Part shown: piece after piece, positions 41,870 to 53,557 of the stretch
Layout of the letters: the number at the start of each line of letters is the position of its first letter
Position numbering within the stretch: the stretch's first letter is position 1
NCBI GenBank assembly: GCA_030264375.1
Contig: JASCQW010000043.1
Span: forward strand, 63,015,984 to 63,079,983
Source: Carcharhinus longimanus
Taxonomy: Eukaryota
Length of the DNA stretch: 64,000 nt
Direction: 5' to 3'
Notes under the pieces: generated by a model
What the model saw: only the letters and a program-made list of their open reading frames with translations
What the model was told of the DNA's origin: nothing
Database searches by the model: none
Program-made: the position numbers and the translations under genes

Positions 41870-42966
41870 GAATCATAGAATCATACAATCTACGTCATAG
41901 AGACAGGCCCTTCGGCCCAAACTGGTCCATGCCGACCAAAATGCCCATCTAAGCTAATCCTATTTGTGTGAATTTGACCCATATTCCTCATAAACCTTTC
42001 CTATCCACGTATCTATCCAGATGCCTTTTAAATGTTGTCAATGTTCCTGCCTCAACCACTTCCTGTTTCAGCTTTGATTAAGTTCCTGCTCTGGAAGGTT
42101 AGATCACATGGAATCCAAGGAGAGCTGGCAAATTGGATATACAATTGACTTGATGGTAAGAAGCAGAGGGCAATGATGGAAGGATGCTTATCAGATTCAC
42201 ATGTACGTACTACTCTCTGTGTAAAAAAGTTGCTCTTCAGGTTCCCATTAATTCTTTCCCCTCTTAACTCAACCTACGCGCTCTAGTTCTCGATTCCCCA
42301 ATGCTGGAAAAAATACTGAGGACATTCATCCTATCCATGCCTCTCATGATCTTATATCTTATATGGTGAGGGATGGCCTCACCAACGTCCTTACAACTGC
42401 AACATAACTTGCCAACTTCTATTCTCAGTGCCCTGACTGAAGGCTAGAATGTCAAAAGCTTTCTTCATTGCCCTATCTACCTGTGACTCCATCTTTAGTG
42501 AACTGTGCATCTGAACCCACGATACTCCCAAAGATCCTACCATTCACCATGAAGGTCCAACTTTGATTTGACCTTCCAAAATGCAACACCGCACAGTTTT
42601 CTGTATTGAAATCCATTTGCCATTTCTCGATCCACTTCCCCAGCTGATCAAGATCCTGCTGCAATTTTTGATAACCTTCCTCACTGTCTATAATACCCCC
42701 TATTTTAGTGTCATCTGCAAACTTATTGATCATGCCTTGTACATTCTCATCCAAATCGTTGATATAGAGAACAAACAGAAATGGGCCCAGCACTGACCCC
42801 TGAGGCACACCAATAGTCACAGGCCTCCAATCAAATAAGCATCCTTCCACCATTACCCTCTGCTTCTTACCATCAAGTCAATTGTATATCCAATTTGCCA
42901 GCTCTCCTTGGATTCCATGGGATCTAACCTTCCAGAGCAGGAACTTTATCAAAGCTGAAACAGGAA
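41870..42966 (-). mobile_element. CR1 LINE (RT to 3' end, internally deleted) carrying an inverted templated copy of its own 5' junction
   Basis: GVPQGSVLGPFLFVLYINDLD...KFADDTKIGG...LQQDLDQL..W..KWQMDFN. (ATCATAGA)n tail at 41870. Confidence 0.92.
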
Positions 42967-49075: not shown

Positions 49076-49739
49076 GGGAAATTATACCTTTACAGGATAA
49101 AAATGAATGTTTCTGGCTATCATGCATTCGAAAACGTTCTGGATAACAACATATTTTCGAAATGTGTTTACTTATTTACATGGAATAATAACGCTCCCTT
49201 CGGTTTTAATGTGTATTTAAAATCACAATCAGCTTCAGCGTGTGGGGTATATTGGTTGAGGTGTTAAACAGAAGGACAGTTAAATCTAAATATTGCCTGC
49301 AAGCTGTATTTTCTGGATGCACAGGGAAGTAATTGCTGGGGAAAGAACAGGTTGTCTTCGCTGTAAACAGGCGCGATATAAATGATCTGGATGGTGGATG
49401 CACTTTATTATAAATCCAAGTCCCGTGACCTAAGCGTTCTGGATGAGGGTCTGAACAAAATCTAAATGCGTGCGCTTCCCGGAGTAAAATGTTCTGGATG
49501 AGTAGAAAGTCAATGTAACCATTTGTTTTAGGCGCCGGGAGCTAAATGCTTGGAGCTGGCTCAGTTAGCTGGGTGCTTGTTTTGGACTGTGACGGAACAA
49601 GGGGGTGAAAGTAGCTGAATTTGCTGGCTAGGCTCGCTAAACGCTCCACTGCTGGGAGTTGAATGCTCCAGTGCTGGCTCTGCTGGAAGCTCCTTTGACA
49701 CACAGGGACTGACTTGACTCTTGGGCTGGAAACTCAGCT

Positions 49740-49925
49740 CCTCTCTCTCACACACACACACACACACAGATGGGAAAATGTGCAGCCAATGGCTGGGCTG
49801 AGTTTCATAAAAGCTCTGTTCTGAGTGGCTGCAGGGCGAATGGTTGTGAAACAAAGGACAGGGAGCTGGGTCTGGAGCAGGGAATCAGAGAGAGAGAGAC
49901 ACACACACACACACACACACAGAGA
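49740..49925. repeat. Two compound microsatellites, (CT)n(CA)n at 49740-49769 and (GA)n(CA)n at 49887-49925
   Basis: Read directly. Confidence 0.9.
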
Positions 49926-50046
49926 AATGTGCACCCAGCAAAACACACACACAGCCAAGACAAGCCAACACAACCACTAAAATACATCGACACTCAGGAC
50001 AAACCAAGGCACACCCAGCAAGACACACAGGCAGACAGGTAAAGGA
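49780..50046 (+). promoter_or_regulatory. Candidate ZNF608 core promoter and non-coding first exon
   Basis: CCAAT 49786-49790, TATA-like CATAAAAG 49806-49813, flanking GA/CA microsatellites, and donor-like CAG|GTAAAG at 50038/50039 (alternative CAG|GTAGTC at 50049/50050), all in a CpG-richer zone upstream of the acceptor at 52433. Confidence 0.4.
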
Positions 50047-51110
50047 CAGGTAGTCACGCTATCACATTTGATTTAAAAACAAAACAAACAAAAAAAAATG
50101 CCTTTCATATCACACGAAGACCAGGGCAAAACCGAGCCAGTACTGATCGTAAGTATATTGTGAAATAATCTGAGTGTAAACTTTTTATCAATCACACCAG
50201 AGATCGTATCTTTTGGCAAGAGAAGTGAGTTATTTTCAAAGTTCCTTTTTTTTTAAAGAAAAGCTTTACTCCCCGACCCGAGTTTGGGATAAAATCGGGC
50301 TATAATTAAATGTGATATAGTTTTGATCCTTCTTGTTGATTTGACAATTGTATCCGGTGCCGCTTCCTTATTTATTTTACTTCCACGATTTTGTTCTTAA
50401 AGGAGGAAACACATTTGGCTATTAGTCCCTCGTGACACTTACCGTGCTAACTTGAGCTTGTAAATAGCTACAAGTCTTTTTTTTGTTGGAGTTGACTTTA
50501 ATAAGCATTTACAACTGTCGACCAGGAATGCTGCTGTCCCCCCTCCCCCTCCCCTGCTTTTATTGCTGATATGAAAAGAACAAGCAGCGTGTTCCAAAAA
50601 TTTGTGTTTAATCTCACCCAGGCGACAGAGAGCTGCTCCCGAACAGATTGCCCACCACCACCACCCCACATTAAAATTGTAAGATTTCAAGTTTTCCCCT
50701 TTTTTTGTTTAAACCACTGAGGCACCATCAGTTTTCTGCCACGCTTGTCACCGATTTTTGTTCTCACGTCAAGCTACAGGGGGATCTTGGATTCACGTGA
50801 TTGAAGCTCGAACTGTAACAAAATAGCTGCTTTTAGGTGGTTGGTTGTTGCAACCTCCCCCTTCAAATCCATCAACAATTCATTACAGCTTTTAGCTCTA
50901 AACGCCAGCTAATTAAACTGTGTAGCTCCTAATCCGAGTACAAGATGACAGAAAATGGTAAGCAGACAATCGTCAACGTTTGCAACAAATCGGTCCTGCT
51001 TGTATAAGATATTTTCTTTTNNNNNNNNNNNNNNNNNNNNNNNNNNNNNNNNNNNNNNNNNNNNNNNNNNNNNNNNNNNNNNNNNNNNNNNNNNNNNNNN
51101 NNNNNNNNNN

Positions 51111-51227
51111 TCTTGCATCCTATCTATGTCACGCTGCAACTTCTGACATCCCTCCAGACTATCCACAACACCACCAACCTTCGTATCGTCGGCGAACTTA
51201 CTAACCCATCCCTCCACTTCCTCATTC

Positions 51228-51228
<1 letters not shown>
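51111..51228 (-). mobile_element. Young CR1 RT fragment next to a gap
   Basis: VEGWVSKFADDTKVGGVVDSLEGCQKLQRDIDRMQ. Confidence 0.9.
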
Positions 51229-51229
<1 letters not shown>

Positions 51230-51260
<31 letters not shown>

Positions 51261-51304
51261 TGTGTCTGTGCATGTGTGAGTGTGTGTGTGAGTATCTGTG
51301 TGAG
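51230..51304. repeat. (TG)n microsatellite running into a gap
   Basis: Read directly. Confidence 0.95.
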
Positions 51305-52433
51305 NNNNNNNNNNNNNNNNNNNNNNNNNNNNNNNNNNNNNNNNNNNNNNNNNNNNNNNNNNNNNNNNNNNNNNNNNNNNNNNNNNNNNNNNNNNNNNNN
51401 NNNNNNNNNNNNNNNNNNNNNNNNNNNNNNNNNNNNNNNNNNNNNNNNNNNNNNNNNNNNNNNNNNNNNNNNNNNNNNNNNNNNNNNNNNNNNNNNNNNN
51501 NNNNNNNNNNNNNNNNNNNNNNNNNNNNNNNNNNNNNNNNNNNNNNNNNNNNNNNNNNNNNNNNNNNNNNNNNNNNNNNNNNNNNNNNNNNNNNNNNNNN
51601 NNNNNNNNNNNNNNNNNNNNNNNNNNNNNNNNNNNNNNNNNNNNNNNNNNNNNNNNNNNNNNNNNNNNNNNNNNNNNNNNNNNNNNNNNNNNTAGAGGAG
51701 TGAAACATTGACTTGAGGTTTAGAATGTTTCTTCCATTATGTATTACATTGGGATTACCACAAGTTGTGCGAGGGTGGGTGATGGGATGTATGGGGGCAA
51801 GTGTTGCAGAATGTAATGATGTTTTATTTTGGGGGTTGTGGGGAGGGGGGCAGTGGGTGTGATGCCGGGGAGGAGATGTTTGAATGATTTCAAGGTAAGA
51901 GTTGCTAAAGCTACCCATGATGCATGCTTTTCAGACTTTGAATGGTTACACTGATCTTTGTCAAACAACCTCATTTGCGGTCAGTGGGGCCACCTTGGTG
52001 CAGAGCTCATGGAGCGCGAACGAGTGCTGATCCAGTCCTAGCAACGTGTGCTGTTTTTTACCAAAGGCGCCTCTCTCTCGCACGATGATAACTTTTTCAG
52101 ATGTTAAACGTTTGGCAAAAAAAAAGAAAAGGAGAGAGAGAGAAACAATCAAGTCCGACTTTAGTGTGTGTTTTTTTTAAATTCCTTTCTGCTCTGTGGC
52201 TATTGCAGTCATCTCGTCTCATTCGGTGTGAAATTACAAAGGTCATCAATGGAAAGGGCGACTCCAAAGACCTATTTTTACAAAACCATGTAATCGGATT
52301 GTATTTTTAATATTGGGAAGTTTCCGTCTGCTCGTAAAAAAATTAAAAGGGGGGAGAGGCAAGGGGAGGGGGAAAAAAGAAAAAATGTTGGTCTTACCCA
52401 ACAACCGATTTATTAAGTTTTATCTTTTTGCAG

Positions 52434-52621
52434 GAAGTAATTTATTCGGGTGTGTGGATCGTGTGATTCGAATATAAGGGCAATCTCTCTCTATCTCTAT
52501 CTCTATCTATATAAAATAAACATATGAGAGGATTGAAACACGTGGCGGAGAAGCGAATGTCCTCCCAGATCCAAAGCAGTGAAGTTCATCCAATTTTTAT
52601 CCAAGAGCTCCTATCTTCAGG
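52434..52621 (+). other. ZNF608: Probable 5' UTR portion of the ZNF608 start-codon exon
   Basis: Strong acceptor TTTTATCTTTTTGCAG|G (CAG 52431-52433). The segment contains a (CTCTAT)n microsatellite and two upstream ATGs (52524, 52557). Confidence 0.7.
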
Positions 52622-52631
52622 ATGTCAGTGA
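52524..52631 (+). promoter_or_regulatory. Upstream overlapping ORF, 35 aa (MRGLKHVAEKRMSSQIQSSEVHPIFIQELLSSGCQ*)
   Basis: Read directly: ATG 52524, second in-frame ATG 52557, stop TGA 52629-52631 inside the ZNF608 CDS in a different frame. Function is inferred. Confidence 0.55.
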
Positions 52632-53557
52632 ACAGTTCCATTGCTAGTAGTAAAGGTGTTGATTCAAACGCGGTTGATACTTACGACAGTGGCGATGACT
52701 GGGAAATTGGAGTGGGAAATCTGATCATCGATTTAGACGCGGATTTGGAGAAAGACAGGCAGAAATTGGAAATGAATAACTCGAGTGGCAACAGCGGCAG
52801 TAGCAGCATTGCAGCCAGTGGCAGCAGCAGCAGCAAGGAGTGCGGGGCCAGTGTAGCAGCAGCGTCAACCCTTCCTGATAGCCTCAAATTCACCTCCTCC
52901 TCCTCGGTCCAGCCGCCTCCCCCAGGCAATTCCCACAAGGAGACTGGCAAATCCAAAGTGAAAAGAAGCAAAACTTCCAAGGATGCTAATAAATCTCTCT
53001 CCTCTGCCTCACTGTATGGGATTCCTGAAATTAGCAGTGCTGGCAAGAGGCAGGAAGTTCAAGGGCGCCCTGGAGAGGTTTCTGGCATGCATTCAGCCCT
53101 GGGTCAAACACTGAGCAGCAGCAGCAACGGCAGCAGCGGCGGCAGCAGTGGTTGCAACAATAATAATAACAGTAACATTATTAATAACCCCGCCATTGGC
53201 AATTGCACTAAAGGCAAGGAGGAGAGAGCGGCCAAGGGCTCGGGCAGGGGAGGCTCGAAACGGGACAAGGAGGCCGGCAGGTCCCGCAAGGATGGCAATA
53301 AGCAGGAGGTGGGAGGGCAGCACCCTGGCCAGCCCCCGATGCCGGTGCCCGTGACAGCCGCCTCGCATCTCTTTAACTTCGGCCCCAAAGGCGGCAGCAG
53401 CTCCTTGCAGTGCTGCGGGGAGCCCGCAACCCGCATCCAGGACATTAAGAGCACGCTGGAGTCAGGAATATTAACCCACCCCATCGTGCTGAAAAAAGAT
53501 GATGAAGAGCGTGACGAGGAGAGTGCCCGACCTATCAAGAAATTGAAAACTGAAAAG
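52622..53557 (+). CDS. ZNF608: Zinc finger protein 608 (Brakeless/Scribbler homologue), first coding exon, 312 codons, phase-0 donor
   Basis: Translation MSVNSSIASSKGVDSNAVDTYDSGDDWEIGVGNLIIDLDADLEKDRQKLEMNN...GNSHKETGKSKVKRSKTSKDANKSL...LYGIPEISSAGKRQEVQGRPGE...IKKLKTEK matches the recalled vertebrate ZNF608 N-terminus rather than ZNF609. It ends at the donor AAG|GTAACA (53557/53558). The ORF-track tail VTTP* is intron read-through. Confidence 0.95.

Follow-up and report, generated by a model that had tools for sequence, protein, structure and literature searches.

Open reading frames that begin at an AUG in the leader, run out of frame with the main coding sequence (CDS) and stop inside it are classed as upstream overlapping ORFs (uoORFs) in the GENCODE Ribo-seq annotation (PMC11057154). 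Such frames are typically repressive and are bypassed through leaky scanning, the ribosomes that they do capture being lost to the main ORF (PMC10275272). AUGs in poor context can be used with an efficiency as low as 3% of the optimal one, and the poor-context inhibitory uORFs described in Hox genes (Ivanov et al. 2022, PMC8892498), which span 7–21 codons, are conserved from mammals to fish and carry ribosome footprints. In the leader of ATF4, a short uORF precedes an out-of-frame overlapping uORF (PMC10275272). For ZNF609, the paralogue of the gene considered here and known for its exon 2 and circ-ZNF609 leader (PMC5387670), a catalogue of 7,264 human Ribo-seq ORFs also contains one uORF, c15norep66 (PMC10032668).

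The locus described here, at the start of ZNF608 in a shark genome, lies in a window of 64,000 nucleotides, by which we mean the whole stretch of DNA analysed. Its 35-codon frame has the GENCODE uoORF layout, with an AUG in the leader, an out-of-frame course and a stop inside the CDS, but it departs from the described members of the class in that the overlap with the CDS is only 10 nt, that it has been read from sequence alone and that ZNF608 has no uoORF row in the 7,264-ORF catalogue. With the Hox uORFs it has in common a pyrimidine at −3, the lack of G at +4, a developmental regulator as host gene and a predicted sensing of start-codon stringency; its upstream ATGs (uATGs), in contrast, are known from the shark and one close relative. 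A literature search, with most subscription journals outside its range, returned no publication on a ZNF608 uORF; a preprint on the evolution of ncORFs leaves ZNF608 unnamed in its main text, and PMC8892498 names it merely among the genes screened. The ZNF608 overlapping uORF belongs to a common class, of which it is a so far undescribed case.

The CDS is that of ZNF608, with the best match in Mustelus asterias (94% identical), and the main Met at 52622 is also the start of 118 of the 120 matches listed. We infer an exon start at 52434 from the T-rich acceptor-like site, the T content of which is matched by only 3 of the 2019 YAG sites in the window. The stretch is present as a single copy in the genome, which carries one paralogue, ZNF609-like. 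Coordinates are collected in Table 1.

Table 1. Sequence features in and around the ZNF608 leader, given in window coordinates
Feature	Position	Strand	Basis or remark
17 codons from an ATG to the end of an upstream exon, donor GTAAGT	50098..50148	+	N-terminal match to short shark and ray isoforms of ZNF608
ATG with A at −3, abutting donor GTAAGC	50955..50957	+	fits 9 isoforms in which one Met precedes the next exon
11 codons from an ATG up to donor GTAAGA	51862..51894	+	end is similar to the N-terminus of a single skate isoform (P0207)
T-rich acceptor-like site, exon start inferred at 52434	52413..52433	+	12 T in 18 bases
10 codons and TGA in frame +1; would close uORFs entering from a phase-0 upstream exon	52434..52466	+	translation
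Simple CT/AT-rich repeat in the leader, directly 5' of the first uATG	52476..52520	+	sequence
Upstream overlapping ORF, 35 codons, frame +1, poor-context ATG	52524..52631	+	ATG/stop scan
Second poor-context ATG, 24 codons to TGA 52629–52631	52557..52559	+	ATG/stop scan
36 leader bases conserved to green turtle, no indel	52586..52621	+	8/12 main-frame codons identical, at least 4 substitutions
Proposed alternative acceptor, unsupported	52600..52620	+	12/18 pyrimidines, 6 T
ZNF608 CDS within the first coding exon (312 codons; phase-0 donor AAG/GTAACA)	52622..53557	+	ORF and homology

Only the ATGs at 52524 and 52557 lie between the acceptor-like site and the main ATG; frame +1 is common to the two, and they share a stop within ATGTCAGTGA. 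An ATG scan bears out the first-pass annotation, which had placed the two ATGs of the putative UTR part of the exon in a single frame that runs for 35 codons and closes inside the main CDS. As an inventory of the exon this count of two stood, but the annotation had missed the ATG-bearing ends of upstream exons, and the whole leader has more ATGs. The first uATG is embedded in aaacat ATG A (C at −3, A at +4) and the second in aagcga ATG T (C at −3, T at +4), both of which fall under the definition of poor context given in PMC8892498, which asks for a pyrimidine at −3 and a base other than G at +4. Around the main ATG the corresponding bases are A (−3) and T (+4), in agreement with the contrast in start contexts noted earlier, and the pyrimidine-rich CTCCTATCTTCAG/G is likewise found, as claimed, one base 5' of the main ATG.

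The overlap layout by itself is ordinary. When the 188-nt leader was dinucleotide-shuffled 10,000 times, an out-of-frame overlapping ORF of any length arose in 46% of cases, one of at least 24 codons in 16% and one of at least 35 codons in 7%; among human 5' UTRs, overlapping ORFs occur in 15.0% and uAUGs in 42.5% (PMC11057154). The chance of a pyrimidine at −3 for both uATGs is 0.24. Shuffles with exactly two ATGs numbered 1208, and both ATGs fell into one overlapping frame in 31 of them, a feature that was picked out post hoc.

Conservation of the leader could be followed in few proteins: of 465 collected, only the green turtle gene model P0121 and three Nanorana isoforms extend into it. The turtle model aligned gap-free over the 13 codons preceding the Met, and because 8 of the 12 full turtle codons are identical, the non-coding frame is preserved to roughly the degree seen in the opening codons of the CDS. 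Each of the four shark–turtle differences is explained by one base change, three of them silent in the uORF frame and the fourth changing Leu to Ile, whereas only one of the four is silent in the +2 frame. This excess of silent changes is not significant, with 33%–46% silent expected by chance and P(at least 3 of 4) = 0.11–0.25; the turtle's third codon positions cannot be read, and some 1.3–1.7 changes are expected to be hidden. Under minimal changes the turtle sequence has no stop in the uORF frame. The Nanorana protein begins MFRM, with an in-frame ATG three codons upstream, which implies a change of Ser to Cys in the uORF frame. As the turtle model ends short of both uATGs, the comparison covers the last 36 leader bases, and it shows these to be constrained, the constraint lying on the bases and not amounting to selection on the peptide.

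The stop codon can be followed more widely. Residues 3 and 4 are V, L, I or M followed by N or S in 366 of 366 canonical-start ZNF608 proteins (redundant isoforms included) and are therefore compatible with the same +1 stop, which is forced in 10 ZNF608 proteins reading MSMN (skate, sturgeons and paddlefish). For the uATGs themselves we turned to contigs of reads from four sequencing runs out of 24 listed, one of which (run X8) covered the uORF; two of the four yielded no contig, which carries no evidential weight. The X8 contig, from another, close organism and only guessed to be RNA, spans 52521–52998 unspliced and has no listed difference from the shark over 52521–52716, both uATGs being identical; beyond 52716 it has 4 listed substitutions and 3 in-frame indels, with one further substitution unplaced. 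This is weak evidence of conservation because that organism is close, and it is the one close relative in which the uATGs have been seen. A metagenome scan for orthologous ZNF608 DNA returned 5 loci, namely two ZNF609-like, one more distant homologue and two weak matches, while a prokaryote scan gave 4 weak unrelated matches and a viral scan none.

Human Ribo-seq records show the leader of ZNF608 to be translated, since a uORF there has been catalogued, but an overlapping frame is absent from the catalogue. The single ZNF608 row in PMC10032668 is a 26-aa uORF of the non-overlapping type with negative PhyloCSF. Judged by eye, its product is unlike the shark peptide, and among the ATG frames of the shark at 49300–52640 none clearly corresponds to this uORF (c5norep118). 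No ZNF608 row was present in the supplements of PMC4890304, PMC11057154, PMC4739776 and PMC10690280 (Ji 2015 included), several of which were small files only.

Considering these data together, we propose that the overlapping uORF at 52524–52631 mildly dampens the long isoform of ZNF608 through leaky scanning, its translation being predicted, and we assign this reading a probability of about 0.5. From the observed anatomy, the start contexts and the constraint on 36 bases, the behaviour of ribosomes can be predicted as follows: most scanning ribosomes would bypass both weak uATGs and initiate at 52622, and the minority initiating at the uATGs would terminate beyond the main ATG and be lost to ZNF608. 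The output of the long isoform would then be lower when start-codon selection is relaxed and modestly cut otherwise. The frame and the position of its stop probably matter more than the peptide sequence, and the overlapping frame is likely to come last in a series of several uORFs, in a leader that has alternative first exons. The dosage control over translation put forward in the first-pass annotation is thus partly supported, by the anatomy, by a mechanism that fits published cases (PMC10275272, PMC8892498) and by a stretch kept as far as turtle, the effect itself being a prediction. If it holds, ZNF608 would be one more developmental regulator, among many, with a dose trimmed by uORFs, an unsurprising result of value for annotation; if the uATGs are conserved to mammals, 5' UTR variants there would become interpretable. 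Ribosomes might also move back from the uORF stop and reinitiate at the main ATG, 7 nt ahead of it (retrograde reinitiation); the viral cases described depend on extra RNA elements.

The two ATGs might instead be incidental and barely used, with the leader conserved for splicing or back-splicing signals, RNA-binding sites or an overlapping DNA regulatory element. This account is possible, though we hold it to be clearly less probable than dampening; it draws on the 46% rate in shuffles, the poor context of both ATGs, the missing row in the human catalogue and the non-significant synonymous excess, and a leader kept for another reason would have a parallel in ZNF609, whose exon-2 UTR is reported to be more conserved than the remaining UTR parts of that gene (PMC5387670). 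It sits less well with the finding that both ATGs occupy the sole frame open into the CDS (the 31 of 1208 above, post hoc), and the constraint is not accounted for by RNA structure, as no stable fold was detected in the leader (z +0.95; 159 of 200 shuffles fold as well), or by an Rfam match, of which the leader has none. That the 35- or 24-residue peptide is itself functional, as a microprotein or a ribosome-stalling peptide, seems very improbable to us. The tally of three silent changes and one conservative Leu-to-Ile replacement, against one silent change in the +2 frame, is what such a peptide would leave behind, yet a tally of this kind is reached by chance at the P value given above and the frog (Nanorana) change is non-synonymous. 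A peptide search of 1.84 billion proteins returned 2 matches, both tandem-repeat proteins and neither a homologue, and a search of Atlas returned no match, results that carry little weight because such peptides are rarely called; with no homologue and no significant codon signal, the earlier suggestion of an unannotated microprotein found no support. Least credible of all is the use of an acceptor at 52621, which would delete both uATGs and turn repression off. The site offers CAG/G, 12 pyrimidines in 18 bases and, by eye, a branch-like TTTAT about 22 nt upstream, and the turtle IFR and frog MFR residues are compatible with a retained AG. However, the tract is mediocre, its pyrimidine count being reached by 300 of the 2019 YAG sites in the window (15%) and thus not above background, and two further AGs lie 13–15 nt upstream. 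The AG also supplies the −3 A of the main start, where the paralogues read AAG ATG or AAA ATG, which argues for a Kozak context. The one covering contig out of one (run X8) is unspliced across 52621, without a joint or loose end, although this is weak evidence because contigs drop rare forms. The alternative-acceptor switch proposed in the first pass was accordingly not borne out, and the junction count that it called for, 52434 against 52621, gave none at 52621 (one covering contig of four runs, in which rare forms could escape), and no junction was observed at 52434 either.

The remaining alternatives involve the upstream exons. Database short isoforms of ZNF608 skip the exon 52434–53557 (312 residues) and start in upstream exons. 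The exon end at 50098–50148 matches 9 shark and ray isoforms and has look-alikes in bony fishes, amphibians and amniotes; it looks conserved across jawed vertebrates. All three upstream exon ends in Table 1 are in phase 0, as is the next exon (253 nt, outside the window). If 50148, 50957 or 51894 were joined to 52434, uORFs of 27, 11 or 21 codons, respectively, would result, with their stop at TGA 52464–52466; from there the two uATGs are 57 and 90 nt away, and the main ATG 155 nt. Such joins would permit delayed reinitiation as in ATF4: an upstream-exon ATG would give a short uORF1 of 11, 21 or 27 codons ending at 52466, and ribosomes resuming scanning would either enter the overlapping frame 57 or 90 nt further on (off) or, with ternary complex scarce, reach the main ATG 155 nt on (on). 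The three phase-0 exon ends with ATGs, the lengths and spacings, the conservation of the first exon end, where short isoforms begin in 9 shark and ray proteins, and the phase-0 next exon fit this scheme, which we nevertheless find improbable. The joins are putative, none having been seen in reads; the poor contexts of the overlapping frame would capture few ribosomes; and uORF1 would be longer than in ATF4, while reinitiation declines with uORF length (PMC8892498). The likeness to ATF4 depends on the joins taking place; the ZNF608 uORF1 would require these splices and have 11–27 codons, and its uORF2 has weak starts and a 10-nt overlap. The uORF1 of ATF4 comprises 3 codons, and an uORF2 of the ATF4 type has a start strong enough to capture reinitiating ribosomes. 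The strong uORF2 start expected of such a leader was not found, both uATGs of ZNF608 being in poor context. A related and equally improbable idea is an ancient isoform switch of jawed vertebrates, in which one upstream ATG would start either short ZNF608 (exon skipped) or a permissive uORF1 (exon included), with the overlapping frame gating the long isoform. Splicing together with stress or start-codon stringency would then set the ratio of long to short ZNF608, and upstream ATGs with such a dual use, if real, would tie the translation of the long isoform to whether the exon is skipped.

The 5' end of the leader may also lie nearer to the exon. A contig of run X11, from another organism and guessed to be RNA, covers 52075–52106 and 52207–52318 at 90–95% identity. 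The conserved stretch 52075–52318 may represent an exon-proximal 5' end or pre-mRNA, and transcripts could begin just upstream of the exon, a possibility to which PMC8905624 adds by naming the 256-nt human counterpart of the next exon 'exon 2'; a leader starting there would add ATGs at 52085, 52101, 52249, 52288 and 52385. Further upstream, at 49740–49860, a CCAAT-like element and an AT-rich box precede the first upstream exon and suggest, by eye, a possible promoter.

Among paralogues, the exon that carries the ZNF608 overlapping frame is matched by exon 2 of ZNF609, likewise the first coding exon, in which the phase-0 donor again follows KTEK and the uATGs are again in frame +1 (PMC5387670; c15norep66). 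The two differ in that the ZNF609 uORF (17 codons) stops 68 nt before the main ATG and is non-overlapping. None of the three ZNF609 paralogue leaders contains an ATG-started overlapping frame. At the equivalent place, two of three ZNF609-like loci have a +1 stop without an ATG leading to it, which indicates that this stop can persist without a uORF. In the shark ZNF609 leader (L003, on the minus strand of G000:C171, from 122 to 68 nt upstream of the ATG), the 17-codon uORF begins with Met-Met 3 nt into the exon and ends in Thr-stop. Human c15norep66 likewise has 17 codons running from Met-Met to Thr-stop, though it is classed as primate-young; length and ends of the ZNF609 uORF look conserved from shark to human, while the middle differs. 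The ZNF609-like locus L005 has a 36-codon uORF from 112 nt before the ATG, its stop ending one base before the main ATG, and the more distant homologue L006 has a 27-codon overlapping uORF in frame +2 from 58 nt before the ATG. Within the family, uORFs close to the start turn up repeatedly but in differing frames.

If the ZNF608 exon 52434–53557 (1124 nt) underwent back-splicing as ZNF609 exon 2 does, its main frame would continue for 10 codons past the junction to TGA 52464–52466, and the shark ZNF609 exon would gain 18 codons in the same way; any such circle in the shark is hypothetical. Elsewhere in the window, the minus strand carries a 126-codon ORF at 42473–42853, which we take to resemble a fragment of a LINE reverse transcriptase.
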